Positions 8,609 through 25,490 are shown, counted from the first letter of the stretch. The stretch is 64,000 bases of DNA from Vulcanimicrobiota bacterium (GCA_050250895.1 JBFWNU010000001.1:1096008-1160007); one strand, 5' to 3'. Numbers and translations: made by a program. Notes: generated by a model not told the origin, from the sequence alone.

Positions 8609-10080
8609 TGTCGATCGAGACCGCCAGCACCCTGGTAGCTCTCTCGCCCGATCTCGTGGTGACGGTGGGAGCGGTGCTGGTTTTGCTCACCGACCTGTTC
8701 CAACCGAAGTCGCATCGCTCTTGCCAGGGTCTGACCGCCGCCTGCCTGCTGGTGGGGTTGATCTGCTCGATCATGTTAGGCCAATCACAGCTCGGCCCGA
8801 TGCACCCCTGGGCCGCCCGGGTGCTCGTGGTAGACTCGATGACCGCCGCTTGCAAAGGGCTCATCTGCCTTTTGGCTTTGCTGGTGGTGATGGTCTCGTA
8901 CCGCTCGTTTGACGAAGAAGAGCGCCATCCGGGTGAGTACTACACGATGATTCTCTTCGTCACCCTGGGCATGTTGGTGGTAGCTGCCAGCAACGAGTTC
9001 CTCACTTTCTTCGTGGCCTTCGAGCTACTCTCGATCCCGCTCTACATGCTGGTTGGCTTTCGCCGTTACGAAGTGACCTCGGCCGAGGCCGGCCTGAAGT
9101 ATTTTTTGACCGGAGCCGCTTCCTCGGCGATCCTGCTGTTCGGCATCAGCTGGATCTATGGAGCCACCGCCACCACCCAGTTCAATCAACTGGCTCAGGG
9201 GGTCAAACCCGGAACTCTGAGCCTTTTCCTGCTGGGTCTGGTGTTCGTGCTGGTAGCCCTGGGTTTTAAGATTTCGGCTGCCCCCTTTCACATGTGGGCG
9301 CCCGACGCTTATCAAGGCGGACCCACCCCGGTCGTAGCCCTGCTCTCGACCGCGCCCAAAGCCGCCATGCTGGTCTTCATTCTGAGGCTGTTTGCCAACA
9401 ACCTCAATGGCCTACCCGAGAAGTACGGCCCCGAGCTAATGTACCTGTTCGCGGCCCTGGCCACGCTATCAGTGGTGGTCGGCAATCTAGTGGCCCTGCC
9501 GCAGAGCGACCTGCGCCGCCTGCTGGCCTATTCTGGGGTGGCCCAGATCGGCTACATCCTCATCGGCGTCATGAGTTCGGTCGGCAACCCGAGCGAGGGA
9601 ATGGGAGCCGGCTCGGTGCTTTTCTATCTGGTGGTTTACACCCTGACCAACGTGGGCCTTTGGACCGTTGTCCAGCTGATCGGTTCGCAGACCAATTCCT
9701 ACGCCATCGCCGACCTGGCCGGCCTGTCCCGCCGCAATCCCTTCCTGGCTCTGGTGCTGCTATTCGGCCTGCTGTCGCTAGCCGGAGCCCCGCCCTTTAG
9801 CGGATTCGTCGGCAAGGTCTACCTGTTCCGTGCGGCTTTCTCTATCGAGCCGATGGTGGTCGTGGTCGGGGTGCTGGGGTCGGTCATCTCGCTGTATTAC
9901 TACTTTGGCATCCTAAAACTCGTCTATTTCGACCAGCCCGAAGAGGGCGAGGTGCTGGCCGTGGCTCCCGTGCAAAAGCTGGTGCTGAGCCTGTGCCTGG
10001 CCTCGACGGTGGTGCTCGGACTGTGGCCCACCCTGGCCGAGCACTGCTATCAAATCGCCGAAGGCAGCCTGGGACTATGA
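8608..10080 (+). CDS. nuoN: NADH-quinone oxidoreductase subunit N
   Basis: EAGLKYF, FKISAAPFHMWAPDAYQGGP and RLLAYSG motifs. Confidence 0.95.
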   Translation: MSIETASTLVALSPDLVVTVGAVLVLLTDLFQPKSHRSCQGLTAACLLVGLICSIMLGQSQLGPMHPWAARVLVVDSMTAACKGLICLLALLVVMVSYRSFDEEERHPGEYYTMILFVTLGMLVVAASNEFLTFFVAFELLSIPLYMLVGFRRYEVTSAEAGLKYFLTGAASSAILLFGISWIYGATATTQFNQLAQGVKPGTLSLFLLGLVFVLVALGFKISAAPFHMWAPDAYQGGPTPVVALLSTAPKAAMLVFILRLFANNLNGLPEKYGPELMYLFAALATLSVVVGNLVALPQSDLRRLLAYSGVAQIGYILIGVMSSVGNPSEGMGAGSVLFYLVVYTLTNVGLWTVVQLIGSQTNSYAIADLAGLSRRNPFLALVLLFGLLSLAGAPPFSGFVGKVYLFRAAFSIEPMVVVVGVLGSVISLYYYFGILKLVYFDQPEEGEVLAVAPVQKLVLSLCLASTVVLGLWPTLAEHCYQIAEGSLGL

Positions 10081-10418
10081 GCGAAGAGGAAAAACTGCTA
10101 CCTCAAGAACTGGTCATCACTCGCCTGCTCAACCAGCGCATGGTCGAAGAAGACTGTCTGCGCCCCGGCGACCGCGAGTCGGTCGCCTATCGCATCGCCG
10201 AGCTCATGATAGCTGCCAAGGAACTGTACACCCGCTCGCTACCCCGTCTGACCGAAAAACAAGCAGATGGCGAGTCGATGTTCGCCGAGTTGGCCGGCTT
10301 GAGAATGGTCTTCCTGCACCTCCGCGACCTGGTGGGTGACTTCGAGGACTCCTTCATGGAAGCCATCGTCCACCAGCGGGAAGAAGACGAAGACGCCGGC
10401 GAAGCCACCGACGAATAA
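10077..10418 (+). CDS. hypothetical acidic helical protein coupled to nuoN
   Basis: ATGA overlap with the nuoN stop; coding-like codon usage; about 113 aa. Confidence 0.7.
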   Translation: MSEEEKLLPQELVITRLLNQRMVEEDCLRPGDRESVAYRIAELMIAAKELYTRSLPRLTEKQADGESMFAELAGLRMVFLHLRDLVGDFEDSFMEAIVHQREEDEDAGEATDE

Positions 10419-10426
10419 CCTCGAAT

Positions 10427-11119
10427 CTAGTCTTCGACGCGTTGGAGTTCTTGAAGGATGACGTTGCTGGTGTGATAGGTCATCAGCCCGATGCGGGGTG
10501 AAGAGATGGTTTCGATCTCCATTCTGACCACAAACCCGCTCTCGGGGGCGAAATGAATTAGGCCGCTACCGGCCATAACCACTTTAGCAGCCCCTTGACC
10601 GCCAGGTAGCGGAAAGTCGAACTCTAGCTCTTCGGTAACCACCTCAATGACCACACAGTCGAAGCCGTTGACCGTCTCGGCGCCCTCGACCGTATACGTG
10701 TTCTTGCAGAGCACCGGGTCGGGACGGTTGGGAATGGGAATCTGGCTGCTACCCTCCCAGCTCGAGCCCTGGGCGACCGGCATCTCGGGAAAGGAATAAG
10801 AGTTGGTGGGGTTGGCCCCCGTCGACTCGAGCACTCGCCCGGCCGAGGAGATTTCTTGGTAGACCAATTGGCGAGGGGTGCCGGGAGGGGGCGGGGGCTC
10901 TTTGGGATCCGTCAGACTGACCACATGGCCGTGCCCGCTTTGATCGCAGTACACAGTCCGCTGGATCAGATCGGCCACGAAGACCATCTCTTGTTCGCGG
11001 AGGACCGTGCCTTCTTGCATGATCTCCGTACTCACTGTGGTGGTCAGCTTATAGTGAAGTCTACGGTCGGTCTTGAACCGGAGCTTAAGCTCGATACCTT
11101 TTTCGATGTCAATCGCCAA
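10427..11119 (-). CDS. hypothetical beta-rich protein
   Basis: 230-aa ORF with GGGAGG SD before a TTG start; FPEMPVAQGSSW resembles DUF6263-like beta proteins. Confidence 0.7.
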   Translation of the reverse strand: MAIDIEKGIELKLRFKTDRRLHYKLTTTVSTEIMQEGTVLREQEMVFVADLIQRTVYCDQSGHGHVVSLTDPKEPPPPPGTPRQLVYQEISSAGRVLESTGANPTNSYSFPEMPVAQGSSWEGSSQIPIPNRPDPVLCKNTYTVEGAETVNGFDCVVIEVVTEELEFDFPLPGGQGAAKVVMAGSGLIHFAPESGFVVRMEIETISSPRIGLMTYHTSNVILQELQRVED

Positions 11120-11209
11120 AGCTTCCTCCCTGGTCGCCTCTTGGCTTTCTAGGGTGTGAGAATCGTTCCTTCCTCGCGGCTTATTCGCTCCCAGGGCGGA
11201 ACCGGGGTC

Positions 11210-11743
11210 ATGGGTGTGGAAACAACCAGGGTGCGAAAGACGATGCCCGCTTCGGTCCTGCTGGTGGCGATGACCATCGTCCTCGGCTTGAGCGATTTAG
11301 GCTACCTCAGGGTTTCGGGGTTTGGGGGCGCTATCACCATAGTGCACGTCCCCGTGATCCTGGCCGCTATTTTGGACGGTCCCCTGGTCGGGGGTCTGGT
11401 AGGCCTGGTTTTTGGCACCCTCACCCTGCTCAAGTTCGAACCCCACGACCCGTTCCTGCATCTGGTTCCGCGCATCCTGCTCGGGGTGGTGGCCGGACTG
11501 GTCTTCCAATTCGTGCGCGAAGCGATGGACGGAGGCGCCCGCACCAGTCTGGCGGCCGCGGCTGCGGCCGTAGCCGGAAGCCTCACCAATACCCTGGGGG
11601 TGGCCGCCATCGCGGTCACCCGGGGTCACTATCGAATCGACGAACTCGGTTCGATGGTGCTGCTTCACGGAGTCATCGAATTGGCCATCGCCCTGGTCTT
11701 GATCGTGCCCTCGGCCGTCTGGTTGACCCTCCAGAGGGACTAG
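11210..11743 (+). CDS. ECF transporter S component, probably pantothenate-specific (PanT-like)
   Basis: TIVHVPVILAAILDGP..G..VGLVFG, LVPRILLG and GSLTNT motifs; adjacent to coaX; start uncertain. Confidence 0.85.
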   Translation: MGVETTRVRKTMPASVLLVAMTIVLGLSDLGYLRVSGFGGAITIVHVPVILAAILDGPLVGGLVGLVFGTLTLLKFEPHDPFLHLVPRILLGVVAGLVFQFVREAMDGGARTSLAAAAAAVAGSLTNTLGVAAIAVTRGHYRIDELGSMVLLHGVIELAIALVLIVPSAVWLTLQRD

Positions 11744-11769
11744 GGCCCCCTGGGCGAACCGGGTCTTCC

Positions 11770-12540
11770 ATGGCCAAGATGCTCGCCCTGGATGTCGGCA
11801 ATACCAACCTGGTCGTCGGCCTCTACGACAATGACCACCTGCTTCAATCCTTCCGCCTTTTCACCGATCGCACCCGGACCGTAGACGAGTACGGCGTGCT
11901 GCTCAAGAAAATGCTGCTCGACCACGAGCACGACCCGCGCGAAGTCGAAGGAGTTTGCGTTTCCAACGTGGTCCCCATTCTGACCGATCGCATCGAACAG
12001 GTTTGCCGCAAATACCTGCGCCTCGAGCCTCTCTTCGTGAGGGCCCACCTGGATCTGGGCTTGACCGTCGTGGTGGAGCGGCCCGAGGAGGTCGGGGCCG
12101 ATCTACTGGCGGCCATGGTGGCGGCCCGCCAGCGTTTCGGTGCTCCCGTGGCCGTGGCCGATCTCGGTACGGCCACGACGATCTCGTTTCTGACCGATGA
12201 CGGCTGCTTTCGCGGGGTCATCATTGCTCCTGGCCTCGAAATCTCGATGGAGGCCGTGCTGTCCCGGGCTCCTCACTTGCCTCCCTTCCGACTCGAGGCC
12301 CCCCCTCAGGCTCACGGCACCAACACCATCCACTGCCTCCAATCGGGGCTACTATTAGGCCACGCCTGCATGATCGACGGATTGGTCGAACGGGTCGAGC
12401 AAGAGTTGGGCCCCACCCAACTGGTGGCCACCGGCGGTCTGGCCCCCCTGGTCGGCACCGTTTCGCGCCGCATCACCACCGTGGAACCCAACCTGATCCT
12501 GGAAGGTATTCGCCAGATCTGGACCCGCAACCGAGCCTGA
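11770..12540 (+). CDS. coaX: type III pantothenate kinase
   Basis: LALDVGNTN, VGADL, DLGTATT and ATGG motifs. Confidence 0.95.
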   Translation: MAKMLALDVGNTNLVVGLYDNDHLLQSFRLFTDRTRTVDEYGVLLKKMLLDHEHDPREVEGVCVSNVVPILTDRIEQVCRKYLRLEPLFVRAHLDLGLTVVVERPEEVGADLLAAMVAARQRFGAPVAVADLGTATTISFLTDDGCFRGVIIAPGLEISMEAVLSRAPHLPPFRLEAPPQAHGTNTIHCLQSGLLLGHACMIDGLVERVEQELGPTQLVATGGLAPLVGTVSRRITTVEPNLILEGIRQIWTRNRA

Positions 12541-12613
12541 GTCCCGAGCCGTCGGTGGTTGAAGGAAGGCCTATTCATTTGTCGAAGGCGCGGTTGCTTT
12601 TAGCGGGTATTTC

Positions 12614-13885
12614 ATGACCGTAGACATCCAGAACAAAGCTGCCACCGACGAGATCCACGAAGTCAGCCGCCTTTATCGGGACTATCTCAATCCCGATCTG
12701 GCTCGCCTGATCAAGTTCAGTGGCCTGGGCACCATCGAAGAGCGCGCCAGCGGCTCGCTGGTCTATGACTACAAAGGTCGCGACTATCTCGACTTTTCTG
12801 GCGGCTACGGCGTTTTTTCGCTGGGCCACAGCCATCCCAGGGTGGTGGCGGCTGTCCAAGAGCAACTCGAGGCCATGGCCCTGAGCCCGCGCGTTTTCCT
12901 CAATCGCCAGCAAGCTCGCCTGGCGGAGCGTCTGGCCCAACTCAGCCCCGGCAAGCTGCAGTACTCGTTTTTTTGCAACAGCGGCACCGAAGGGGTCGAG
13001 GGGGCCCTCAAATTGGCCCGGGCCGCCACCGGCCGCAGCCATTTTGTTTCGGCCACCAACTCTTATCACGGCAAGACCATGGGCAGCCTGTCGGTCTCGG
13101 GTCGAGACAATTACAAGGCTCCCTTCGAGCCGCTCGTGCCCGGCACCAGACAGGTTCCGTGGGGCGATCTCGAGGCCCTTGATTTGGCCCTCGACCAGGA
13201 CGTGGCTGCGGTCATTCTCGAGCCGGTCCAGGGCGAAGGCGGCATCCATCTACCCCCGGACGGCTATTTGCAAGGCGCTGCCGACCGGGCTCGCCGCCAC
13301 GGGGCTTTGTTCATTGCCGACGAGGTCCAGAGCGGTCTGGGCCGCACCGGCAGACTGTTCGCCGTCGAGCACTGGGGGGTCGAGCCCGACATCATGGTGC
13401 TGGCCAAAGCCCTGGGCGGAGGCGTCATGCCCATCGGCGCCTATCTGGCCACGCCTGAGGTGGCGGCGGCCTACCGAGGCAAGCCGCTGCTCCACACCAG
13501 CACCTTTGGTGGCAACCCGCTGGCCTGCGCGGCCGCTCTGGCGACCCTGGAGGTGCTGGTCGAGGAACAGCTCTCCCAGCGCGCGGCTGAGGCTGGGCAG
13601 GCCATTATGGCGTCCCTGACCCGCCTGCAAAAAGAATTTCCCAACCTCATCAAGGAGGTCCGTGGTCTGGGCCTGATGATCGGGCTGGAATTGCTCGAAG
13701 ACCGGTTTGGAGGCTCGATCATCTCCGAGATGGCCAAGCGGCGGGTGGTGGCTGTCTACACCTTGAATCAACCTCGAGTTATCCGGTTTGAACCCCCCCT
13801 CAACGTGGAACATGGGGAAATCGACCGAGCTATGCAAGCCTTGCAAGAAGCCATGGTCGAGACGGCCAGACGGATGGGCGGCTAA
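12614..13885 (+). CDS. class III PLP aminotransferase (putrescine/acetylornithine aminotransferase-like)
   Basis: CNSGTEGVEGALK, ILEPVQGEGG, DEVQSGLGRTG, LAKALGGG (PLP Lys) and HTSTFGGNP motifs. Confidence 0.92.
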   Translation: MTVDIQNKAATDEIHEVSRLYRDYLNPDLARLIKFSGLGTIEERASGSLVYDYKGRDYLDFSGGYGVFSLGHSHPRVVAAVQEQLEAMALSPRVFLNRQQARLAERLAQLSPGKLQYSFFCNSGTEGVEGALKLARAATGRSHFVSATNSYHGKTMGSLSVSGRDNYKAPFEPLVPGTRQVPWGDLEALDLALDQDVAAVILEPVQGEGGIHLPPDGYLQGAADRARRHGALFIADEVQSGLGRTGRLFAVEHWGVEPDIMVLAKALGGGVMPIGAYLATPEVAAAYRGKPLLHTSTFGGNPLACAAALATLEVLVEEQLSQRAAEAGQAIMASLTRLQKEFPNLIKEVRGLGLMIGLELLEDRFGGSIISEMAKRRVVAVYTLNQPRVIRFEPPLNVEHGEIDRAMQALQEAMVETARRMGG

Positions 13886-13895
13886 AGGAGACAAC

Positions 13896-14342
13896 ATGCC
13901 TTACGTCGAGAAAAGCATCATTATCGCGGGCGACCTCGAGACCGTGTACGAGCTGGCCAAGGACATGGAAAGCTATCCCCGCTTCATGCCAGATGTCGAG
14001 AGCGTCAAAGTCGTTTCTCGCACCTCGAACGAGACCATCACCGAGTGGGTCACCAACGTTGACGGCACTCCCTTTCTCTGGACCGAGAAAGATTCGTTCG
14101 ACGACCTGAACCATCGCATCACCTATTGCCTGATTGAAGGCGACCTGGAGAAGTTTGAGGGCGCCTGGTCTTTCGCTCGCATCGACGACGGAGGCACCCA
14201 GGTCACGCTGGCCGTCGACTACGACTTCGGGCTGCCCGAGCTGACCGAGCTGATCGGTCCCACCTTGCATGAAAAGGTCGGGGAGAACTCCGAGATGATG
14301 CTGCAGGGAATGAAGCGTCATGTGGAGGGCAGTTCCACGTGA
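13896..14342 (+). CDS. SRPBCC/START (Coq10/polyketide cyclase-like) lipid-binding protein
   Basis: DMESYPRFMPDV and LIEGDLEKFEGAW motifs; AAGGAG SD before ATG 13896. Confidence 0.88.
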   Translation: MPYVEKSIIIAGDLETVYELAKDMESYPRFMPDVESVKVVSRTSNETITEWVTNVDGTPFLWTEKDSFDDLNHRITYCLIEGDLEKFEGAWSFARIDDGGTQVTLAVDYDFGLPELTELIGPTLHEKVGENSEMMLQGMKRHVEGSST

Positions 14343-15433
14343 ACCGTTTCGGTTTCTTGCTGCACCCCCTGGGGATGCAAGACGTGGTGCGGTATGCACC
14401 CAAAGCCGCTGGCAAGCGCGAACCGCTGGTCCGTAAGCTATTGGAGTGGATGCCGCCCTACGAGGCGTCCAACATCGACGGGGTTCGTTCGCAGCGCGGG
14501 ATCGATATCACCGGCAAGTTCGTGATGGTGCCCCTCCTGCCAGCTCAGTTTATCGACATGCCACGAAAGGCGGTGCTCGAGCGAGTCAAAAAGGCCGCTC
14601 TGCTGGCTCAAAAACTGGGCGCGCAGATGGTAGGTCTGGGTGGCTACAACTCGGTGGTTGGTGGGGCCGGCAAAGAAGTGGCCGACCTGTTGGATGTGGC
14701 CGTCACCAGTGGCAACTCCTATACGGTTGCCACCGCTCTCGAAGGCGCTCTGGCCGCCGCCCAGGCCCTGGATGTCGATATGGCCAAGGCCACCGTGGCC
14801 GTAGTTGGTGCCACCGGCTCCATCGGTAGCGTTTGTGCCCGCCTACTGGCCCGCCACGTGCCCCGCCTGGTTTTGATGGCCCGCAGCAAGTCACGGCTCA
14901 AAGTACTGGCCGAACAGATTCACAGCGAAAGCCGCACCGCTCTAGCCATCGAAATGGACCTGGCGCGAGCCCTCGAGAGTGCTGACGTGGTCATCACGGC
15001 CACCTCTTCCGGAGGCGGTATCATCCAGGCCAAGCACCTCATGCCGGGGGCCATCGTCTGTGACGTGGCCGTGCCCCACGACGTGTGCCGCGAGGTTGCC
15101 AAGCTGCGTCCGGACGTGCTGGTGATTGAAGGCGGAGTAGTGCAGGTTCCCGGCAACCCGCAATTTAATTTCGACTTCGGCTATCCACCCGGGGTGGCCC
15201 TGGCCTGCATGGCCGAGACGATGGTGCTGACCATGGAGAACCGGTTTGAAGATTTCAGCATCGGCCGCGGCCTCGACTTCGACAAAGTCGACGAAATCGA
15301 GCGTCTGGCCCAACGCAACGGCTTTCGCCTGGCCGGTTTTCGCGCCTTTGACCAACCGATTACCACCGAACGCATCGAGGAGGTGCGGGCCCTGCGCGAA
15401 GAGCAACGTCGGGGCCTGAAAGTAATCGGGTGA
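14339..15433 (+). CDS. acyl-ACP reductase-like NAD(P)-dependent oxidoreductase (often labelled shikimate dehydrogenase)
   Basis: FGFLLHP N-terminus, GLGG, TSGNSYT, Rossmann VVGATGSIG, DVAVPHDV and ACMAE (catalytic-Cys motif of cyanobacterial AAR, ACFAE). Confidence 0.8.
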   Translation: MNRFGFLLHPLGMQDVVRYAPKAAGKREPLVRKLLEWMPPYEASNIDGVRSQRGIDITGKFVMVPLLPAQFIDMPRKAVLERVKKAALLAQKLGAQMVGLGGYNSVVGGAGKEVADLLDVAVTSGNSYTVATALEGALAAAQALDVDMAKATVAVVGATGSIGSVCARLLARHVPRLVLMARSKSRLKVLAEQIHSESRTALAIEMDLARALESADVVITATSSGGGIIQAKHLMPGAIVCDVAVPHDVCREVAKLRPDVLVIEGGVVQVPGNPQFNFDFGYPPGVALACMAETMVLTMENRFEDFSIGRGLDFDKVDEIERLAQRNGFRLAGFRAFDQPITTERIEEVRALREEQRRGLKVIG

Positions 15434-16338
15434 AGCACGTCGTCAGCGTAAGTCTTGGCTCGAACAAAAGAGACCACACAGCCGAGACCGAATTTCTGGG
15501 GCATACCTTTCGCTTCGAGCGCCGAGGCACCAACGGCCAGTTCAAAAAGGCGGTGGCCCTGTTGCAGGAACTCGACGGCAAGGTCGACGCCATCGGCCTG
15601 GGCGGGATCGATGTCTATCTCTGCAGCCGCAATCAGCGGTACGCTCTGCGCGACGGTTTGCGCCTGATGGAGACCGTCAAACAGACCCCGGTGGTCGACG
15701 GCTCGGGCCTCAAGAACACCCTCGAACGCGAGACCATTCGCTTTCTCGAGCGAGATGGGCGCATCCAACTCAAAGACCGCCATGTGCTGATGGTGTGTGC
15801 CATGGATCGTTTCGGTATGGCCGAGGCGCTCGAGGCCGCCGGCGCCAAAGTCACCTATGGCGACCTCATCTTCACGCTGGGGGTGGATAAGCCCATTCGC
15901 AGCCTCGACGAACTCGAAGAACGAGCCGAGAAACTGTTGCCCGAGGTGTGCAAACTGCCCATCAGCATGGTTTATCCCATCGGCCAAAAGCAAGAGATCA
16001 TCGCCCCCGACGAGTCTACTTCGCGCTACTACCACGAAGCCGACATCATCGCTGGCGACTTTCACCTGATCCGCAAGAAAATGCCCGACTCTCTCGAGGG
16101 CAAAACCATCATCACCAATACCGTTACCGAGAAAGACGTCAAAGAACTGGTCAAGCGCAAGGTCAAATGGCTGGTGACCACCACCCCGGCCATCGACAAC
16201 CGCAGTTACGGGACCAACGTGCTCGAGGCCGCCATGGTTGCCCTGATCGGCAAGCCCTGGCAAGAGACCCTGCCCGAGGACTACCTCAAGCTCATCCGCG
16301 AAGCGGACCTTCGGCCCCGAATCCAGCAACTCAACTAG
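15430..16338 (+). CDS. conserved protein of unknown function (family usually labelled quinate 5-dehydrogenase)
   Basis: MKHVVSVSLGS.KRDH, DAIGLGG, VVDGSGLK and GTNVLEA motifs; GTGA overlap with the upstream gene. Confidence 0.75.
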   Translation: MKHVVSVSLGSNKRDHTAETEFLGHTFRFERRGTNGQFKKAVALLQELDGKVDAIGLGGIDVYLCSRNQRYALRDGLRLMETVKQTPVVDGSGLKNTLERETIRFLERDGRIQLKDRHVLMVCAMDRFGMAEALEAAGAKVTYGDLIFTLGVDKPIRSLDELEERAEKLLPEVCKLPISMVYPIGQKQEIIAPDESTSRYYHEADIIAGDFHLIRKKMPDSLEGKTIITNTVTEKDVKELVKRKVKWLVTTTPAIDNRSYGTNVLEAAMVALIGKPWQETLPEDYLKLIREADLRPRIQQLN

Positions 16339-16347
16339 GAGCAACCC

Positions 16348-17835
16348 ATGAGTGAGAGCGAAAGCGGAGGGCTGGCCGAACAGCGCGCCCGCCGTGTTGA
16401 AAACCTCGAGGCCCTGAGAGCCACCGGACGCGACCCTTACGGCGCGCGCTTCGACCGGACCACCACGGCCGCCCAGATCCAGGCCGATCATGCCGAATTG
16501 AGCAAGGAAGACCACGGACCCGTCGTCTCGCTAGCCGGCCGGGTGACCGGTAAGCGAGGCCACGGCAAGGCCTGTTTTATCGACCTCACCGACCTCTCGG
16601 GTCGCCTTCAGACCTACTGTAAGGTCGACATCCTGGGCGAGGACCAGTATCAGGCCCTGGATCACGTCGACCTCGGCGATTTTCTCGGCGTCACCGGACC
16701 GGTGTTTCGCACCCGGCGCGGCGAGTTGAGCATCCAGGTCGAAAAGTGGGAGATGCTGAGCAAGGCCATCATGCCCCCGCCCGAAAAGTGGCACGGCCTC
16801 AAGGATGTCGAAATCCGCTATCGGCAACGCTACGCCGATCTCTTGAGCAACGCCGAGGTGCGCCAGACTTTCATCACGCGCAGTCGCATCGTCTCGGCCA
16901 TTCGCAATTATCTCGATGGCCTGGGCTATCTCGAGGTCGAAACCCCCACCATGACGCCCCTGGCTGGGGGAGCCTCGGCTCGGCCCTTCGTCACCCACCA
17001 CAACGCCCTCGATCTGACCCTGTATCTGCGCATTGCCACGGAACTCTACCTGAAGCGCTGCATCGTGGGCGGGCTCGAAAAGGTCTACGAAATCGGCCGC
17101 ATCTTCCGTAACGAAGGGATCTCGACCCGCCACAACCCCGAGTTCACCATGCTCGAACTCTACGAGGCCTATAGCGACTACGAGGGAATGATCGACATTA
17201 CCGAGGGGATCATCGACCATGTCTGTCAGACAGTGTTGGGTACCCACGAGGTGGAGTTCGGCGGCCATCAGCTCAATCTCAAGCCGCCCTATCGCCGAGC
17301 CACCATGGATGAACTCTTCCGCGAACACGCCGGAGTCGGCATCCACGACGTGCGCAACCCCGAAACGGCCTTCCGCCTGGCGGCTGAAGCGAAACTTGGC
17401 ATCAAGCCCAGCGACACCACCATCGCCCACGCCATCGACAAACTCTTTGACCACTTCATCGGCGACCACCTGGTCCAACCCACCGTGGTGATGGACTATC
17501 CCATCGAACTGTCGCCGCTGGCCAAGCGCAAGAGCGACGATCCCGACCTGACCTATCGCTTCGAGCTGTTCGTAGCCGGAACCGAAATCGCCAACGCCTT
17601 CTCCGAGCTCAACGATCCGGTCGACCAGCGCGGCCGCTTCGAATCCCAGCAGCAGAACAAGGCCATCGACGACGAGGCCCACCCTCTCGATGAGGACTAC
17701 ATCACCGCCCTGGAATACGCCATGCCTTCCACCGGCGGAATGGGGATGGGTATCGATCGTTTGATCATGTTGCTGACCGGATCCACTTCGATCCGTGACG
17801 TGGTGCTCTTTCCGTTGTTGCGTCCTCGCCAGTGA
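16348..17835 (+). CDS. lysS: lysine--tRNA ligase (class II)
   Basis: OB fold, YRQRY, LRIATELYLKR, FRNEG and GMGIDR motifs. Confidence 0.97.
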   Translation: MSESESGGLAEQRARRVENLEALRATGRDPYGARFDRTTTAAQIQADHAELSKEDHGPVVSLAGRVTGKRGHGKACFIDLTDLSGRLQTYCKVDILGEDQYQALDHVDLGDFLGVTGPVFRTRRGELSIQVEKWEMLSKAIMPPPEKWHGLKDVEIRYRQRYADLLSNAEVRQTFITRSRIVSAIRNYLDGLGYLEVETPTMTPLAGGASARPFVTHHNALDLTLYLRIATELYLKRCIVGGLEKVYEIGRIFRNEGISTRHNPEFTMLELYEAYSDYEGMIDITEGIIDHVCQTVLGTHEVEFGGHQLNLKPPYRRATMDELFREHAGVGIHDVRNPETAFRLAAEAKLGIKPSDTTIAHAIDKLFDHFIGDHLVQPTVVMDYPIELSPLAKRKSDDPDLTYRFELFVAGTEIANAFSELNDPVDQRGRFESQQQNKAIDDEAHPLDEDYITALEYAMPSTGGMGMGIDRLIMLLTGSTSIRDVVLFPLLRPRQ

Positions 17836-19022
17836 ACGCCAGCGGCCGAGTCTGGGTCGAGATCGACCTCGAGAGCATCCGGCGCAACTTTCGCACCCTG
17901 GCAGCTCTGGTGGCCCCCGCCAGGCCGGCCGCCGTGGTCAAAAGCGAAGCCTACGGCCATGGCCTGATCGAGGTCTCGAAGGCGGTGCTCGAAGAGGGCG
18001 CCTGGGGCCTCTGTGTGGTCTATGCCGAAGAAGGGCAGCGCCTTCGTCAGGCGGGCATCGAGGCCCCCATCCTGGTGGTGGGACCGCTGCTCGAGTTCGA
18101 GATGGAGACGGCCATTACCAACCGTTTGCAAGTCGCCGTCTACGACAGCCAGCAGGCCCGCCAGCTCTCGGCCGAATGCGCGCGCCTGGGCCAGGACATC
18201 CTGGTCCATCTGAAAGTCGACACCGGTCTGGCCCGCCTATCGACGGTGGCCGAGGACGCCCTGGAGTTCGTGCACGAGGTCCGCAACTTGCCGGGGTTGG
18301 TCATCGAAGGCGTCTATTCGCACTTTGCCGACGCCGAAGGTCTGGACCAATCTTACACCTTGCTGCAATATCGGCGCTTTCGCCAATTTCTCGACCGCCT
18401 CCAGGAAGCCGGCCTGCGCCCGCCGCTGCGCCACATCTCGGGCAGCGCAGCCGCTCTGCTGCTCAAAGAGGCCCGCCTGGACCTGGTGCGCCTGGGCATC
18501 GCCATCTACGGCCTATGGCCGGCCGACGAAACCCGTCTGCTGCTGCTCAGCCGCGGTCGCGACCTGCTGGAGTTGGTCAACGACCAGTTCGAGAACGGCC
18601 AGACCCCGGCCATCGAAGAGTTACTCACCCCGGCCCTGTCGTTTAAGACCCGCTGCCTGCAGGTCAAGGCCGTGCCGGCCGGCTGCAAGGTCGGCTACGG
18701 CTGCACTTACGAGACCCAGCGCCCCACCCGCATCGCCGTGCTGCCGGTCGGCTACGCCGAGGGTTACGACCGCCATCTTTCCAACTGCGGCGAGGTGCTG
18801 GTGCGCGGTCGCCGGGCTCGCGTGCTGGGACGCATCTGCATGAATCTGACCGTGGTCGACGTGACCGACATTCCCGAAGTCACTGCCGGCGACGAAGTGG
18901 TGCTGATCGGCACCCAAAACGGCCAGACCATCCGCGCCGAAGAGGTAGCCGCCAAGATCGGCACCATCCACTACGAGGTGGTCACCCGCATCCCGGCCTG
19001 CGTGCCCCGCGTGTTCGTCTAG
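17832..19022 (+). CDS. alr: alanine racemase
   Basis: VVKSEAYGHG (PLP Lys), HLKVDTG, GYAEGY, GRICMN and GTIHYE motifs. Confidence 0.94.
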   Translation: MNASGRVWVEIDLESIRRNFRTLAALVAPARPAAVVKSEAYGHGLIEVSKAVLEEGAWGLCVVYAEEGQRLRQAGIEAPILVVGPLLEFEMETAITNRLQVAVYDSQQARQLSAECARLGQDILVHLKVDTGLARLSTVAEDALEFVHEVRNLPGLVIEGVYSHFADAEGLDQSYTLLQYRRFRQFLDRLQEAGLRPPLRHISGSAAALLLKEARLDLVRLGIAIYGLWPADETRLLLLSRGRDLLELVNDQFENGQTPAIEELLTPALSFKTRCLQVKAVPAGCKVGYGCTYETQRPTRIAVLPVGYAEGYDRHLSNCGEVLVRGRRARVLGRICMNLTVVDVTDIPEVTAGDEVVLIGTQNGQTIRAEEVAAKIGTIHYEVVTRIPACVPRVFV

Positions 19023-19030
19023 AAAAGCAA

Positions 19031-19054
19031 AAGCCCCGCAACAGGGCGGGGCTT
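19031..19054. terminator. intrinsic terminator between convergent alr and rpsU
   Basis: AAGCCCCGC-AACAGG-GCGGGGCTT hairpin; the preceding A-run reads as a U-tract on the minus strand. Confidence 0.75.
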
Positions 19055-19069
19055 GTAACTCAGATCGGC

Positions 19070-19240
19070 CTAGTGCCGACGGCGTCGAGCAGCCAGCATC
19101 TTCTTCTTGCGTTTGACGCTAGGCTTCTCGTAATATTCACGCTTTTTGATTTCGGCGAGAACACCGTCTCTCTGGCACTGACGACGAAATCGTTTGAGAG
19201 CAGAGTCGATGGATTCGCCATCCTCTACGCGAGTCTCCAT
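19070..19240 (-). CDS. rpsU: 30S ribosomal protein bS21 (not in ORF track, 56 aa)
   Basis: Manual translation [47 protein letters not shown]...; SD-like AAGGAGG upstream. Confidence 0.96.
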
Positions 19241-19419
19241 TCCCTCACCCCTCCTTTCCCTCGTCGCGCTTGTTCAAGGCCGACGTTGATATACCCCACC
19301 ATCAATGGGTCAGCCGCAGGCGACTGACCCGAAGCTAATTTGAGAAGCTTACACCAGAATCCTCTTTCGGGCAAGTCCTACGAAGGACGAGTCGCCAATT
19401 CGCCCGAAAAGCGACCCTA

Positions 19420-20211
19420 GTGCTCGTGGGACGTTACGAAATCAAGGCCATTGTGGCCGAGCCCGAGACCGGCCGGGTCTACACAGCTCTCGACCATCAG
19501 GCTGGAGGCGCGGTCACTCTCAAGACCATCCATCCCCCGGCCAACCCCGACGAGCTCGAAGCCTTCCGCCGGGCTTTTCAGAACGAGGCCGGGATTCTGC
19601 AGTCCCTCTCTCACCCCGGCCTGCCCCGCGTGCTCGACTCGTTCGAAGACGAAGAGCTGCTCTATCTGGTGCTCGAGCCTCTCGAGGGGGAATCTCTGGC
19701 CGAGCGTCTCGACCGTCACCACGGCCCCTTGCCCTGGCCCGAGGTGCGCCCGTGGGCTCATGCGCTGGTGGACACTCTGGCCTACCTGCACAGCCAGGAT
19801 CCTCCGGTCATCGTGCGCAATCTCAACCCCACCAGCGTGCTGCTCACTTCATCAGGCCCCAAGATTGCCGATTTTGGACTGGCCCGCGTGGTCGAAGACG
19901 GCTCGCGCACGATGACAAGCCTTCGGGGCGTGGCCGCCAAGAACTATGCCCCCCTCGAGCAGTACGACTTCACCAGCACCACCCACACCTATAGCGACAT
20001 CTATTCGCTAGGGGCCACCCTTTACTTCGCCTTGAGCGCCCAGGAGCCGCCCACCGCCGCCGCCCGAGCCGGCCAGGACGTGCCCCTGGCCGACCTTGCC
20101 GAGCTAAACCCCACTGTGCCGGCTGCGGTTGCCGAAATGCTCGAGGCCATGCTGGCCCTCGGCAAACATCGGCGTCCTGACCTCGAGACCATCCGAGCGG
20201 CCTTCGCCTAG
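19420..20211 (+). CDS. Ser/Thr protein kinase-like domain (probable pseudokinase)
   Basis: Hanks fold motifs (ADFGLAR, YAPLEQ, SDIYSLG), but the catalytic loop reads VRNLNP instead of HRDLKP and there is no Gly-rich loop. Confidence 0.85.
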   Translation: MLVGRYEIKAIVAEPETGRVYTALDHQAGGAVTLKTIHPPANPDELEAFRRAFQNEAGILQSLSHPGLPRVLDSFEDEELLYLVLEPLEGESLAERLDRHHGPLPWPEVRPWAHALVDTLAYLHSQDPPVIVRNLNPTSVLLTSSGPKIADFGLARVVEDGSRTMTSLRGVAAKNYAPLEQYDFTSTTHTYSDIYSLGATLYFALSAQEPPTAAARAGQDVPLADLAELNPTVPAAVAEMLEAMLALGKHRRPDLETIRAAFA

Positions 20212-20296
20212 GTGGGGGGCCAGTTCGATTTACCGCCGAGGGGTGGAGCTTTGAGGAGAACCGCTGAGCTCCGCGGAGGACGCCGGGGGGGCGGTA

Positions 20297-20740
20297 GTGC
20301 ACTTCGAAAAGGTGGGCGCTTTCGATGAGAGCCGCCGAGAGAGCACGACCGTGAGCGACGGCCACCCGATCAATGATGGTGTTTCCTTATCCTCAGATTG
20401 TCTGTTGAGGCAAGAGAACGGTCTCTATCGTGTCAACGTGGGGATTCCCACTGTGCTTGGCGGTGATTTCGTGAACTTTGGAGACCTGGTCGAAATCGGA
20501 GAGGAACGTGACGGGATGGTGCCCGTAGTCCGAGTTGTCGAAAAAGGCAAATGCCGCTCCTGGGAATGGCTACTCCCCGAGTCTTTTGATTGGGAATCGG
20601 TTTACGAATATGGCCGACGAGTCGAAGACCACGGCGGCAGTTGGGATAGAATGTGCGGAGGAATCCTCATCATCCATCTTCCCCAAGACTCACCGCTGGA
20701 CCCCGAACTCGACCTGGCCCACTTGTTTGGCCGCACATAG
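20297..20740 (+). CDS. hypothetical protein, DUF4265-like
   Basis: NGLYRV....P......NFGDLVE and GGILIIHLP patterns. Confidence 0.55.
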   Translation: MHFEKVGAFDESRRESTTVSDGHPINDGVSLSSDCLLRQENGLYRVNVGIPTVLGGDFVNFGDLVEIGEERDGMVPVVRVVEKGKCRSWEWLLPESFDWESVYEYGRRVEDHGGSWDRMCGGILIIHLPQDSPLDPELDLAHLFGRT

Positions 20741-20758
20741 CTATCGAAGGACCCGATC

Positions 20759-21493
20759 ATGCCAGACATCAACGACCCGCATGAAGAGCCCGAGGAGGAA
20801 CAGCTGGGCTACGACCCCATTTTGAAGAGGTCGATAGTCACCCGGAAGGTCCCCCTCTCCATTAGCTCAGACCCCGAGGCTCGAGCCCAGTATGTAAAGG
20901 CGATCACTGCCTCGGTCCGGCTTAAACACCCGAACCTTCGCACCATCTACGACTGCGCCCAAAATGACGAGGGTATGCACCTCATCCTGGAATCGGTGCC
21001 AATGACCATCCTGGACGCGCTAAGTCACGGACACGACCTGCGAGCTTTGATCGCGGGCCTGGTGAGCGGTCTCGACTATGCTCATCAGCATGGAGTCATC
21101 CACCAGTCCGTGGCGCCTCGATATATCCGTGTCACCGAAGGCGGGGTGGTCAAGATTTGGGGCTTTGGTGTTGGCCTTCTCGAGGCTCAACACACCGGGA
21201 CTCCCTGGGCCGACGAATACCACTACATGTCCCCAGAGCAAACTCGCGGAGACCCCGTTGACCGGCGAACCGACATCTTCTCCCTGGGCGTTCTACTCTA
21301 CCGGCTGATCGCGGCCAGGCTGCCCTTTCCGGGAAAGAGCCTCCCAACACTGGCGGATCAGGTGCTCCGTCTCGAACCAGAACCACTCGACGACGAGGCC
21401 GACTCGCGACTCCTCAAAGCCGTCCACCGCTGCCTCGCCAAAGACCCCGCCGACCGCTTCCAGAGCCTGCGCGACTTCAGACACGCACTCTGA
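20759..21493 (+). CDS. Ser/Thr protein kinase-like domain (probable pseudokinase)
   Basis: HPNL, YMSPEQ, TDIFSLG and KDPADR motifs; HRD replaced by HQS and DFG by GFG. Confidence 0.85.
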   Translation: MPDINDPHEEPEEEQLGYDPILKRSIVTRKVPLSISSDPEARAQYVKAITASVRLKHPNLRTIYDCAQNDEGMHLILESVPMTILDALSHGHDLRALIAGLVSGLDYAHQHGVIHQSVAPRYIRVTEGGVVKIWGFGVGLLEAQHTGTPWADEYHYMSPEQTRGDPVDRRTDIFSLGVLLYRLIAARLPFPGKSLPTLADQVLRLEPEPLDDEADSRLLKAVHRCLAKDPADRFQSLRDFRHAL

Positions 21494-21542: not shown

Positions 21543-22994
21543 ATGCCCTCCCGACTCCTTTTGTCGTTGCTTTTCTTGACGCTGCTCGCCGGCCCCGGGT
21601 TTGGCCTAGTGGAAGAAGGTGGGAGCGAGGTTACTCTTGGTCCTGGCGCTGCCTTCGAGGTTACCGCGCCAGCCGGCTGGATCTTTGACAATGAAAGCTG
21701 CCGGCGCTACTTCACCGACGTGGTCATCTATCCGTTGGGAAAATCGTGGGATGGCAGCGACGGGCCAGTCATCTCCTGCCAAACGTATCCCAAATATGGA
21801 GAAAGCCTCGACAAGATGATCGCCCGAGAATACGAGCAGCTGAGAAAGTCGGGAAATCCTCAACTAAAGTGTCGAGACCTTCCCGACCTCACCACACGGA
21901 ACGGCCAAAAGGCTCGGGTGCGAGTGTTCGGCATCGAAGAGTTCGGGGGGAACGTAGCTTACATCGAAACGCCTCAGTTCTTCTGTCAAATCAGTCTCGA
22001 GGTGCCGGAAATGGCTAGTGAAGAGGGAGGCGTGTCGGCGTTCGAAAAGGTGGTGGAATCGTTCCACTACCTCGCTCCTGATTCCGCAGAGTATCAAGCG
22101 CGCGCAGGGGTAAAGAGTATCCTGGTGGGCACAACCCAAATTGAGGATATCCTTCAATTCGGGCCGCCAGAGGGCTGGACGAAATATGGACCAGGCAAAC
22201 CCGGGGTCTCGATCTATCAGTTCATCGAAGGTCAGAACTACACGGTGATCGCCACCTACACCTCGAAGGTTAGTTCAGGCGACCCCGAGGCCGATTTCGA
22301 AGCTGCCTGGAGCGAACTGGTGCAGAACACCTTCCGAGCCGGCCCTGCCCCACCCGCGGAGCCAGTGGTATTCTATACCGGTTGGCCAATGAGAGTCGGG
22401 CAAACCACGGTCAATGCTGCCGGCCAAGAAACGACTCTTGTTCTCACAGTCTTCTCGGGATGGGGTAAGCGCGCCAGCCTGCTCGCCCTGTCTAACGACA
22501 GGTCGCTTCCCATCAAACTGCACAAGATCCTCGAATCAGCCCTCTACGTGCAAGGTTCTCTGACTGGTCAATGGGGCGCCTATCGCAGCCCACGACACAT
22601 GGTCGACGGCAACGTGGTGGAGTTGGGCGACCCCTACGGTCTAAGCAGAAGCTACCGTTTCTCGGGCAACGACTACAAGTTTGAGAGCCACGCCAAAGTG
22701 GACTCCGACCACGCCGTTTGGGTAGATGAAGAAGGCACAATGACCATCAGCGGAAACAAGTTGACCCTCCACGGCCAGGGCGGCACCCAACGCCACGTAA
22801 GGCCAGACGGGACCGTCGTCAGCAGTCGGGTCCTACCGCCCTGGGAGAGAACTTACACCTTCAAATTGGTTGACATCGACGACGCCTATCACGGCCCCCA
22901 CCTGGTCCTCGAGGGTGTCGAAGAGAACGAGCTTGACGGTGTTTACAGCGAACTCTTCCCGAACGCCTTCGTCTATGTATTAGGCTACCACTAA
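21543..22994 (+). CDS. secreted multidomain hypothetical protein
   Basis: N-terminal signal peptide; 483 aa; codon usage appears less GC3-biased than core genes. Confidence 0.75.
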   Translation: MPSRLLLSLLFLTLLAGPGFGLVEEGGSEVTLGPGAAFEVTAPAGWIFDNESCRRYFTDVVIYPLGKSWDGSDGPVISCQTYPKYGESLDKMIAREYEQLRKSGNPQLKCRDLPDLTTRNGQKARVRVFGIEEFGGNVAYIETPQFFCQISLEVPEMASEEGGVSAFEKVVESFHYLAPDSAEYQARAGVKSILVGTTQIEDILQFGPPEGWTKYGPGKPGVSIYQFIEGQNYTVIATYTSKVSSGDPEADFEAAWSELVQNTFRAGPAPPAEPVVFYTGWPMRVGQTTVNAAGQETTLVLTVFSGWGKRASLLALSNDRSLPIKLHKILESALYVQGSLTGQWGAYRSPRHMVDGNVVELGDPYGLSRSYRFSGNDYKFESHAKVDSDHAVWVDEEGTMTISGNKLTLHGQGGTQRHVRPDGTVVSSRVLPPWERTYTFKLVDIDDAYHGPHLVLEGVEENELDGVYSELFPNAFVYVLGYH

Positions 22995-23037: not shown

Positions 23038-23103
23038 TTGAAGTTCCTGGTGGACGCGCAACTGCCGCCGGCCCTGGCTCGCTGGCTAGCCAGCCAAGGT
23101 CAT
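23038..23103 (+). pseudogene. N-terminal stub of a DUF5615 PIN-like toxin
   Basis: LKFLVDAQLPPALARWLASQGH matches the family start; similarity then stops and the frame runs into repeats and the antisense of mlaD. Confidence 0.65.
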
Positions 23104-23130
23104 CAGACGGATATAACAGCCCCGCCACGT

Positions 23131-23179
23131 CTACCGTCTGAGAACTACCGTCTACCGTCTCCAGACTACCGTCTCAAAG
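23131..23179. repeat. heptamer tandem array (CTACCGT consensus), 7 units
   Basis: ctaccgt-ctgagaa-ctaccgt-ctaccgt-ctccaga-ctaccgt-ctcaaag. Confidence 0.85.
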
Positions 23180-23184
23180 CAAGC

Positions 23185-24669
23185 CTAGAATCGCTTACCA
23201 GCGCCGATGACGGGATAGCTGTTCTTCGAGTCGGTGATGTCGCGCACGCCGCCCTGGATGAAGAAGTCGCCTTTGAAGAGCAGTTTGCCCAGCACGTCGA
23301 CTTTGGGGTCGCCGGTGTCATAAGCGTCGAGATTGAGCTCGAGGCGCTTTTTGAACAGCCAGGCGTCGGCCCCCAGGCCGAACTGCGAGCGGACCACGCC
23401 GGCCCGCAGGCGATAGTTCTCCCAGGTGCGCATCGCCTGCAGGTTGACCAGGTTGTCATTGCCCAGCGAGTCGATGCCCAGCTTGGCGCCGTAAGGGCCC
23501 TGGGGCAGCAAATAGGCGTTGAGATTGGTGTGGGCCTCGCCGATGTCGATATTCCACTGTTGTTCGAGGTCGAGGCCGAACAGATGACCACCGGCCACAT
23601 TGTCGACGACGCCTTCCACCCGGCCCATGACCCGCCTGGCGGTATCGCTGGCTTCCTTGGCGTTGTGGATGGTGTCGCGCAGGTCGCCCTGGACCTCGGG
23701 ATCCGAGGTGATCGAGCGGATGTCCGAGGCGATCCCCTGGATCTCTTCCGAAGTGCGCCGCAGATTGTCGGCCGCGGCTACCACGTCGTCTTTGAGCTCT
23801 TCGTTGTCAGCCAGCTCTTCTACCGTGCGCATCGCTTTCTTGAGGCTGATCGAGGTCTCCCGCAGGTTCATCACGATGGTGTCGATGTTACCCTGATGCT
23901 TGTCGACCGTGCGGCGCACCGTCGAAGAAACGACGCGCAAGTCGTCGCCCACCACCCGGGCGTCACCCTGGAACGAAAGCACCGTATCGTCGACATGGGC
24001 CATCACCAGCTCGAGCGAGTCGCCCAGGCGTTCGACCCGCGAATTGAGACCCGCCACCAGCACCTTGGCATCGGCCGAAGCGCCTTTGATGTTCTCAGAA
24101 ATCTCGCGGAAGTTGCCCATGGTGAGCTTGATATCGTCCTGAAACTTCTCGTCGGCCACCAGCTGATTGAGAGCGTTCACCGACTGGCGAAACTCGCTCA
24201 TCACCTCATTGCCCTCGCGGGCGAGGTCGTCGAGGGTCACCGGCGATTCGCCGATGACCTGACCCCCCTCGGGTAGCGGCTCTTCTTCGGCCGGCACCGA
24301 GCCCGGTTTGATCTCGATCCACTTATCTCCCAGCAAGTTGCCGGTGATCGTGTAGACGTAGTAGCTTCCCGGCGCCTCGTCGGGCTGGCGCGAGCGATAC
24401 AGGTTGACGTTCTTGCGAGTGACCAGGATGGTGGCTTTTACCTGGTTGTTGTTCGAATCGACCAGCTCGAGGTCTTTGACATAGCCGATGCGCACTCCGG
24501 CGAGATGGACTGGGGCCCGCACCTGCAGACCTCCCACGCTCTCGAAGAGAACGCGATACTCGGTGCCAGACTCGCCCCCGACGCGGCCGATCTGGCTGAC
24601 CACGACCAGCAGTAAGATAAAGGCCGTGACAGCGACCATACCTACTCGTGCAGCTGGGTTGATAACCAT
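23185..24669 (-). CDS. mlaD: MlaD/MCE family protein with long helical region and C-terminal beta-rich domain
   Basis: N-terminal TM, F.SVGGL...APV.LAGVRIG.V, LLGDKWIEIKPG. Confidence 0.9.
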   Translation of the reverse strand: MVINPAARVGMVAVTAFILLLVVVSQIGRVGGESGTEYRVLFESVGGLQVRAPVHLAGVRIGYVKDLELVDSNNNQVKATILVTRKNVNLYRSRQPDEAPGSYYVYTITGNLLGDKWIEIKPGSVPAEEEPLPEGGQVIGESPVTLDDLAREGNEVMSEFRQSVNALNQLVADEKFQDDIKLTMGNFREISENIKGASADAKVLVAGLNSRVERLGDSLELVMAHVDDTVLSFQGDARVVGDDLRVVSSTVRRTVDKHQGNIDTIVMNLRETSISLKKAMRTVEELADNEELKDDVVAAADNLRRTSEEIQGIASDIRSITSDPEVQGDLRDTIHNAKEASDTARRVMGRVEGVVDNVAGGHLFGLDLEQQWNIDIGEAHTNLNAYLLPQGPYGAKLGIDSLGNDNLVNLQAMRTWENYRLRAGVVRSQFGLGADAWLFKKRLELNLDAYDTGDPKVDVLGKLLFKGDFFIQGGVRDITDSKNSYPVIGAGKRF

Positions 24670-25487: not shown

Positions 25488-25490
25488 GGT

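Follow-up and report, generated by a model that had tools for sequence, protein, structure and literature searches.

What is made by a run of four closely packed genes that lies among genes for cofactor synthesis and translation, and what does the last of them, which matches no described family, contribute? This question is raised by a 64,000-nucleotide (nt) stretch of DNA from a Vulcanimicrobiota bacterium (GCA_050250895.1, JBFWNU010000001.1:1096008-1160007), which is placed in the Xenobia/UBP9 group of the Eremiobacterota/Vulcanimicrobiota. The whole stretch is termed the window herein, and all plain coordinates refer to it. The four genes lie on the + strand and encode a class III (omega-) aminotransferase of the YgjG/PigE-C type (AT; 12614-13885, 423 amino acids (aa), PF00202), a small SRPBCC/START-fold protein (13896-14342, 148 aa, PF03364), an NAD(P)H-dependent acyl-thioester reductase by family, namely the AAR/PigE-N (COG5322) family (RED; 14339-15433, 364 aa, NF053554 and TIGR04058), and an uncharacterized protein (G4; 15430-16338, 302 aa) outside all Pfam and NCBIfam families. 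The original prediction, made from this DNA beforehand, had taken them for a fatty-amine biosynthesis operon. The most interesting result is a new one: RED and G4 form the core of the system, and this core is widespread and routinely mislabeled.

The four genes form one operon-like unit. RED shares its first 4 nt with the stop region of the SRPBCC gene, and G4 does the same with RED. The open reading frame (ORF) of the SRPBCC protein as listed begins at 13788; the ATG at 13896 is the likely start and is preferred because relatives align to the resulting 148-aa length. Four tightly coupled genes carrying the motifs TSGNSYT, GATGSIG, and ACMAE had been claimed originally, and this description agrees with the ORFs, their overlaps, and their families. 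A promoter and terminator scan gave no convincing match within the four-gene cluster, and Rfam gave no riboswitch and no other cis element at 9000-21000. A search of sequencing runs for expression data listed no RNA run and only DNA runs with small shares of matching words.

The arrangement is conserved throughout the Eremiobacterota. A G4 alignment was scanned against one genome per species, which yielded 555 relatives, of which the best 80 loci were kept. The order AT–SRPBCC–RED–G4 within 5.5 kb (canonical loci) is found in 63 of these 80, and the SRPBCC gene lies between AT and RED in all 63. Since the same genes recur in the same order this often, the arrangement is not a matter of chance; the expected co-occurrence of the four genes in other genomes thus extends phylum-wide. 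Nine further loci are interrupted by a contig end yet consistent with the canonical order, one (L027) is without SRPBCC, and one (L055) has the order G4–X–G4–AT–SRPBCC–RED, where X is a small protein described below. The remaining six, of Desulfoscipio, Pelotomaculum, and Peptococcaceae type, carry G4 without the other three genes nearby. In a phylum sample of 151 genomes (121 of high quality, 71 genera, including one unpublished genome, G127), G4 is present in 149, with 119 of the 121 high-quality genomes and all 71 genera represented. The loci L027 ('Chloroflexota') and L024 ('Armatimonadetes') were considered as independent lineages and rejected, their genomes being part of the GTDB sample of the window's own phylum with identical contig coordinates. 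The record label of locus L001, 'uncultured Burkholderiales', also disagrees with its placement; its proteins are 78-84% identical to those of the window.

RED is predicted from sequence comparison to be an acyl-thioester reductase of the AAR/PigE-N type. It matches positions 34-360 of the PigE model NF053554 with 222.5 bits (E 1.1e-65) and positions 38-335 of the 339 positions of the AAR model TIGR04058 with 112.5 bits (E 2.5e-32), and it is the sole TIGR04058 match in its own genome. In the PDB, it aligns to residues 2-351 of PigE (4ppm, E 3.5e-37) and to AAR (6jzq, E 2.4e-21), with the Cys aligned. TSGNSYT, GATGSIG, and ACMAE are all contained in its translation. The Cys of ACMAE lines up with the one in 'faCfae' of cyanobacterial AAR and in 'gCMAET' of PigE; the counterpart of GATGSIG is the nucleotide motif GATGDIG. 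In the parts of PMC10829540 and PMC9594044 available, the catalytic Cys of AAR is C294 in S. elongatus numbering. Across 20 relatives of RED, this Cys and the GxxGxxG motif are invariant, which is the residue pattern of AAR. The aldehyde-deformylating oxygenase (ADO; PF11266) was not found in the window's own genome, which is 99.6% complete; hence, RED does not serve alkane formation. In the plasmid collection, the only matches of RED are PigE-like fusions (Ralstonia and others). Databases name relatives of RED 'shikimate dehydrogenase' and relatives of G4 'quinate 5-dehydrogenase', and the suspicion that automatic labels mislead at this locus was justified, though JGI already names some RED relatives 'fatty aldehyde-generating acyl-ACP reductase' (ACP, acyl carrier protein).

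G4 accompanies this RED subfamily as its obligate partner, a point that the original prediction missed in listing it as a conserved unknown. The protein has no match in Pfam or NCBIfam, and 72 of its members, each compared with Pfam at E up to 5, share no consistent family. A profile of these 72 sequences found no sequence relative in the PDB. Profile comparisons by hhalign are insignificant for RED (probabilities of 6.7% and 0.8%), CoaX (0.6%), and PlsX (0.2%). No G4 paralogue was found in the window's own genome and no match in the plasmid collection. A search of the protein atlas with G4 returns only clusters named 'quinate 5-dehydrogenase', which are without a Pfam family. The family is very large and highly conserved, with 7991 of 8000 scored candidates matching, and has no curated model. 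G4 may resemble AroM-type proteins.

As an older core of two genes, RED and G4 lie side by side in three phyla at a coaX–dusB...greA–lysS housekeeping locus. The second of these phyla is a Bacillota-type one (Desulfoscipio geothermicus, Moorella, Thermacetogenium phaeum, Thermosediminibacter oceani, Zhaonella, and Anoxybacter), where G4 is found in 228 of 301 genomes and RED in 192 (E up to 1e-40). Both occur together in 191 genomes, G4 only in 37, RED only in 1, and neither in 72; the genomes are not independent of their kin, and the count is descriptive. All eight loci fetched from this phylum carry X–G4–RED without AT or SRPBCC, with coaX–dusB upstream in seven of them and greA–lysS, then an rRNA operon, downstream in six. 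Some of the Bacillota-type G4 and RED matches contain a single in-frame TGA, TAA, or TAG (e.g., G452:C114:2834-3730 and G251:C22:2533-3615), for which sequencing error, a pseudogene, or recoding could account. The third phylum is that of L055 and is labeled Actinomycetota; G4 is present in 11 of its 61 sampled genomes, and X–G4(–G4)–RED lies between coaX and greA–lysS in seven of eight further loci. Tandem duplicates of G4 occur in three Actinomycetota-labeled genomes (L055:323-1225/1837-2739, L112:7041-7937/8002-8865, and L117:6992-7891/7945-8805). AT and SRPBCC are added to this core in the Eremiobacterota and in one Actinomycetota-labeled genome.

Fusions connect the two core proteins as well. 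A search for longer relatives of G4 yielded 117 proteins, mostly of 670-750 aa, many of which carry a RED-type NAD domain or the JGI name 'predicted amino acid dehydrogenase'; in Anaerolineae, Caldilinea, and Oscillochloris records, they are named 'serine carboxypeptidase'. The RED part was verified in all three G4 fusions tested (P0262, P0292, and P0383), and RED+G4 fusions are found among proteins labeled Chloroflexota. Because it is adjacent to RED, co-occurs with it, and is fused to it, G4 behaves as an extra domain of the RED subfamily. In two protein clusters (P0300 and P0461), G4 is fused to an alpha-oxoamine synthase of the BioF/Kbl/serine-palmitoyltransferase type. Enzymes of this type also use acyl thioesters. 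Single fusions of G4 to LysS, BirA, and a permease may be a read-through of neighboring genes.

The regulator family X, which precedes G4–RED in two phyla, has proteins 175-210 aa long with an N-terminal helix-turn-helix and a C-terminal part without a family; its only matches are weak ones to HTH_3. Examples are L093:7367-7924, L092:4402-4944 (- strand), L088:8344-8949, and L055:1293-1919. X was not found in the window's genome. At L090, it precedes the gene of a 923-aa AT–RED fusion, which is 40% identical to AT and 33% to RED. Standing before both G4–RED and this fusion, X ties the two architectures together. Upstream of X–G4–RED in nine loci, Rfam finds only rRNA, tRNA, and one pan motif. 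The latter RNA (RF01749, 52.7 bits, L097:684-778, + strand) lies upstream of pantothenate genes in a Moorella-type locus, in the same island as X–G4–RED.

The proposed role of AT, by analogy with its relatives, would be the conversion of an aldehyde to a primary amine. AT matches PF00202 with E 2.4e-111 and positions 369-744 of the PigE model NF053554 with 433.8 bits (E 1.5e-129). The scores to the putrescine aminotransferase models PRK11522 (455.1 bits, cut-off 612) and TIGR03372 (402.6 bits, equivalog cut-off 658.65) and to the argD model TIGR00707 (380.1 bits, cut-off 410.05) are all below the respective thresholds. The closest solved relative is the putrescine aminotransferase of E. coli (E 7e-116). 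Twelve class III aminotransferases are encoded in the window's own genome, and true ArgD (G000:C3:847440-848540, 437.2 bits versus 410.05), ornithine aminotransferase, and a GabT-like gene all lie away from the cluster; hence, the AT of the cluster is not an enzyme of the arginine pathway. A second PigE-C-like AT paralogue is located at G000:C1:1663030-1664199 (- strand) in a 534-aa open frame and scores 385 bits to the PigE model.

The SRPBCC protein scores 72.5 bits to PF03364 (gathering cut-off 23.4), covering profile positions 4-121 of 126, and is thus a member of this family. It also scores 49 bits to PF10604 and matches a RatA/Coq10-like model weakly. As a proposal by analogy, it would carry a hydrophobic intermediate or product. 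In all six Desulfotomaculia-type loci, G4 is followed by SCP2, a lipid-binding fold that is not related to SRPBCC, together with an APC-family permease. Since two unrelated lipid-binding folds adjoin G4 in different lineages, the ligand is expected to be hydrophobic. A different APC permease lies 3' of G4 in 24 of the 80 loci; these belong to a single part of the Eremiobacterota, and the permease is absent from the window's own lineage. Neither permease can be assigned to a defined subfamily.

How could these proteins act together? In a first step, RED would move an acyl group from a 4'-phosphopantetheine thioester, with acyl-ACP as the likeliest donor, onto its conserved Cys and would then reduce the acyl-enzyme thioester with NAD(P)H to the aldehyde, like AAR, PigE-N, and the reductase domain of TamH. 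In a second step, the YgjG/PigE-type AT would transfer the amino group of glutamate or alanine to this aldehyde, giving a primary amine. The SRPBCC protein would hold the hydrophobic aldehyde or amine; G4 may hand over the acyl substrate or process the product. This reading is favored because RED and AT each match one half of PigE, in the model as well as in the structure (RED the N-terminal and AT the C-terminal one), and because alkylamines or their aldehydes are the products of the characterized relatives; the original comparison with PigE and TamH is thereby confirmed. The cluster is real and strongly conserved, and the putative conversion of thioester to amine is its best-supported mechanism. 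By analogy, the logic of thioester to aldehyde to amine appears somewhat more probable than its absence, and for the complete claim, that this four-gene unit converts an acyl thioester in two steps to a primary amine, the chances seem evenly balanced. A medium- or long-chain, hydrophobic substrate is a tentative assignment that falls just short of even, and a product serving as a core membrane or envelope lipid component is doubtful. Chain length, acyl carrier, amine donor, and product fate are putative throughout. Accordingly worded, the fatty-amine operon of the original prediction stands in part: gene content, motifs, and the PigE/TamH analogy speak for it, and the long-chain substrate and envelope-lipid product would be extrapolations from them.

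Several observations weigh against this mechanism. The surrounding locus is an island for cofactor synthesis and translation (pan genes, coaX, dusB, greA, and lysS), not a lipid locus, and the cluster contains neither an ACP gene nor an acyl-activating gene. RED scores far below the cut-offs of both models that describe it, with 222 versus 850 bits for PigE and 112.5 versus 449.7 bits for AAR. The nearest characterized relative of AT is putrescine aminotransferase, and stand-alone AT relatives with 47-54% identity are found in five of five Bacillota-type genomes, where their neighbors are not conserved. The APC permeases beside G4 would equally suit a soluble amine or an amino acid, and the role of G4, when found, could change the pathway. 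For the RED+G4 subfamily, the amine chemistry is a prediction by homology only. Only one member of the phylum has been cultured; its polar lipids are all termed 'unidentified', and no aminolipid is reported from thin-layer chromatography in the available part of its description (PMC9758169). Finally, in most lineages, RED+G4 is found without an AT nearby; therefore, an amine is not the universal product, and the amine step looks like a lineage-specific addition rather than the core of the system.

This last point leads to the alternative that the real unit is RED+G4 and that its product is not an amine but a fatty aldehyde, a fatty alcohol, or a different housekeeping metabolite derived from an aldehyde, with AT and SRPBCC being a side branch or mere neighbors. 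Its evidence is that of the core described above: adjacency without AT and SRPBCC in the eight Bacillota-type loci and in seven of eight further Actinomycetota-labeled genomes, 191 genomes of one phylum with both genes versus one with RED only, and many G4–RED fusion proteins. In the Eremiobacterota, however, the genes overlap or nearly touch and their order is kept phylum-wide, AT and RED are fused in characterized relatives as described in part in PMC9594044, and L055 independently joins X, G4, AT, SRPBCC, and RED. This alternative is thus regarded as improbable.

A diamine or amino-aldehyde (polyamine-type) metabolism is judged to be similarly unlikely. Herein, AT would convert diamines and amino-aldehydes into each other, RED would be a thioester-forming or thioester-reducing aldehyde dehydrogenase, and the APC permease would move the amine. 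The best characterized relative of AT is indeed a putrescine aminotransferase (455 bits; E 7e-116), APC permeases lie 3' of G4 in two unrelated lineages, and one G4–permease fusion exists (P0404). Yet AT remains below the putrescine aminotransferase cut-off (455 versus 612), the neighboring SRPBCC and SCP2 proteins point to a hydrophobic ligand, and all characterized members of the RED family, in the accounts at hand, use hydrophobic acyl thioesters. The permeases, moreover, fit no defined subfamily, and the window's own lineage has none of them.

The vicinity of coaX and of an ECF S component suggests a further alternative, namely a supply of β-alanine for pantothenate and CoA, in which a malonyl thioester would be converted via malonate semialdehyde to β-alanine, replacing the pyruvoyl aspartate decarboxylase PanD. 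PanD was not found in the window's own genome (99.6% complete) and is found in 1 of the 151 phylum genomes, PanC is found in 110 of 151, and in several complete genomes panC lies 6-16 kb from G4. However, G4 is kept in the PanC-less families f2 (PanC in 0/19), f13 (0/5), and f14 (0/6), and the full AT–SRPBCC–RED–G4 cluster is present in all four PanC-less genomes checked; persistence of the cluster where PanC is missing weakens this alternative. In the Bacillota-type phylum, PanD is found in 126 of the 192 RED-positive genomes, i.e., the two co-occur rather than exclude each other, and a lipid-binding partner would be unexpected for such chemistry. Taken together, the β-alanine route is highly improbable. 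In the window's own genome, panC is located at G000:C2:922350-923147; the PanD gap across the phylum is real and leaves a source of β-alanine to explain.

That the automatic labels are correct, making the cluster one of shikimate/quinate dehydrogenases and an arginine-pathway transaminase, can hardly hold and was rejected on family membership: RED does match PF01488, the NAD-binding domain of Shikimate_DH (E 6e-15), relatives bear the names 'shikimate dehydrogenase' and 'quinate 5-dehydrogenase', and AT reaches 380 bits to the argD subfamily model, but the PF01488 match covers the NAD part only, the shikimate-binding N-terminal domain is absent from RED, whose matches to aroE models (~24-30 bits; ~29 bits) are confined to its Rossmann part (residues 120-244), G4 matches no dehydrogenase family, and AT stays under the cut-off (380 versus 410) that the true ArgD elsewhere exceeds (437 versus 410).

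For the preferred conversion of thioester to amine, the alkylamine lipids of other bacteria offer a possible destination. The phosphoglycolipids of Thermus and Deinococcus contain alkylamines, as described in the available part of PMC9636437 (see also PMC3398001); the former, a Thermus lipid paper, names no alkylamine biosynthetic enzymes in that part. Three of 14 control genomes matched the AAR model, namely Synechococcus elongatus, Thermus thermophilus, and Deinococcus radiodurans, the latter two with E between 1e-12 and 1e-25; the ADO model gave no match in these two. By sequence similarity, the AAR-like matches in the two genomes would be compatible with a link to the Deinococcus–Thermus alkylamines. 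A literature search found no paper linking an AAR-like enzyme to these alkylamines and no paper describing an AT–SRPBCC–RED–G4 cluster. On this basis, a wider reading can be formulated, although it is an unlikely one: RED+G4 would be an unrecognized, ancient two-protein enzyme of Terrabacteria-type lineages, with G4 as a new enzyme family that would feed or complete the acyl-thioester reductase, and the AT and START proteins of the Eremiobacterota would yield long-chain alkylamines as building blocks of core membrane lipids, which would be the so far unassigned route to alkylamine lipids like those of Deinococcus and Thermus. The lineages concerned would be the anaerobic Bacillota-type clades, the Chloroflexota-labeled proteins, some Actinomycetota-labeled genomes, and all Eremiobacterota.

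If the amine reading is true, alkylamines are a core trait of a largely uncultured phylum that is globally abundant in soil, inherited vertically rather than being secondary metabolites, and the genes behind bacterial alkylamine lipids can be named concretely. Regardless of the amine question, assigning a function to G4 would correct thousands of annotations, as the RED+G4 pair is often misannotated as shikimate and quinate dehydrogenases. Such an assignment could likewise bring to light a partner mechanism that is new for thioester reductases and of interest for the biocatalytic production of fatty amines.

The surroundings of the cluster are those of a housekeeping locus, as had been stated originally together with the lack of polyketide synthase (PKS) and nonribosomal peptide synthetase (NRPS) genes; at 1-32000 of the window, there is no PKS or NRPS domain and no ORF of at least 750 aa. 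Upstream, coaX (type III pantothenate kinase; 11770-12540, + strand; PF03309, E 4e-58; NF009855, 249.6 bits versus a cut-off of 233) ends 73 nt before AT and is the border of the conserved locus, a place that it takes in the same orientation in 34 of the 63 canonical loci. Directly 5' of coaX lies the S component of an ECF transporter (11156-11743, + strand; PF12822, E 4e-14), which may be of the pantothenate type. This pairing with coaX recurs in the loci L001, L002, L010, L017, and L020 as well as in L093 and L095, which are of Bacillota type. The downstream border is lysS (lysyl-tRNA synthetase; 16348-17835, + strand), which starts 9 nt past G4, follows on the same strand in 48 of the 63 canonical loci, and is also located 3' of RED in Bacillota-type and Actinomycetota-labeled genomes. 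It is followed by alr (alanine racemase; 17832-19022, + strand; PF01168 and PF00842). Farther out, nuo genes lie upstream, and a Ser/Thr kinase and unassigned ORFs lie downstream. Sizeable ORFs without a Pfam family are located at 10427-11119 (- strand), which is also without a match in NCBIfam, and at 21543-22994, 23038-24276, and 24747-25790 (+ strand). Within the phylum, family f2 contains small genomes of 2.2-2.9 Mb (G003, G012, G019, G025, and G034), in which open frames of 2400-2600 aa with ketosynthase domains and a FabF-sized gene are present; PlsX was found in none of seven f2 genomes and PanC in none of 19.

Among known systems, PigE from the MAP branch of prodigiosin biosynthesis in Serratia is one of the closest. 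It combines an AAR-like thioester reductase domain with a class III aminotransferase domain, and both RED and AT align to the respective half of 4ppm. Thioester reduction followed by transamination is the revised chemistry of PigE, as outlined in parts of PMC8341465 and PMC10829540. However, PigE is a single fused protein encoded in a pigment gene cluster, whereas the window has separate RED and AT genes that are split by the SRPBCC gene, contains G4 in addition, and shows this arrangement phylum-wide at a housekeeping locus. Hence, it falls outside the definition of NF053554, which is both domains in one polypeptide with at least 850 bits.

TamH, acting with TamA in the biosynthesis of tambjamine YP1 in Pseudoalteromonas, likewise unites a transaminase and an AAR-type reductase that take an ACP-bound C12 acyl group via the aldehyde to the amine. 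For this pair, conversion of a C12 acid to the C12 amine via the ACP-bound acyl group and with L-Glu as donor is described in the accessible part of PMC9594044. In contrast to the cluster, the domains of TamH are fused in the order AT–RED, a dedicated adenylation–ACP protein is needed, and there is no counterpart of G4 or SRPBCC; the cluster, in turn, has no ACP or adenylation gene. The same two domains are present in KecF/PP_2782 and in the fusions of Thermincola and Thermaerobacter (PMC10829540 and PMC6498172, each in part), yet these are single proteins that mostly occur in secondary-metabolite contexts. The transaminase parts of the Thermincola and Thermaerobacter fusions prefer long aliphatic aldehydes according to the portion of PMC10829540 at hand. 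Both genera belong to the same broad group as the carriers of X–G4–RED.

Separate genes for a reductase and an omega-transaminase, leading from acyl-ACP to a fatty amine, are reported in part for TabE and TabA of the tambjamine BE-18591 system of Streptomyces; TabE, however, is described there as an aldehyde-dehydrogenase-type enzyme, which is not homologous to RED. E. coli YgjG/PatA is the closest solved and curated relative of AT. AT is shorter, with 423 aa versus the 464 positions of the model, aligns from model position 41, and remains below the equivalog cut-off; unlike for YgjG, its translation is coupled to that of a lipid-binding protein and of a thioester reductase. Cyanobacterial AAR, finally, belongs to the same fold family as RED, and the two align at the catalytic Cys and at the nucleotide motif. 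They differ in their partners, which is ADO for AAR and G4 for RED.

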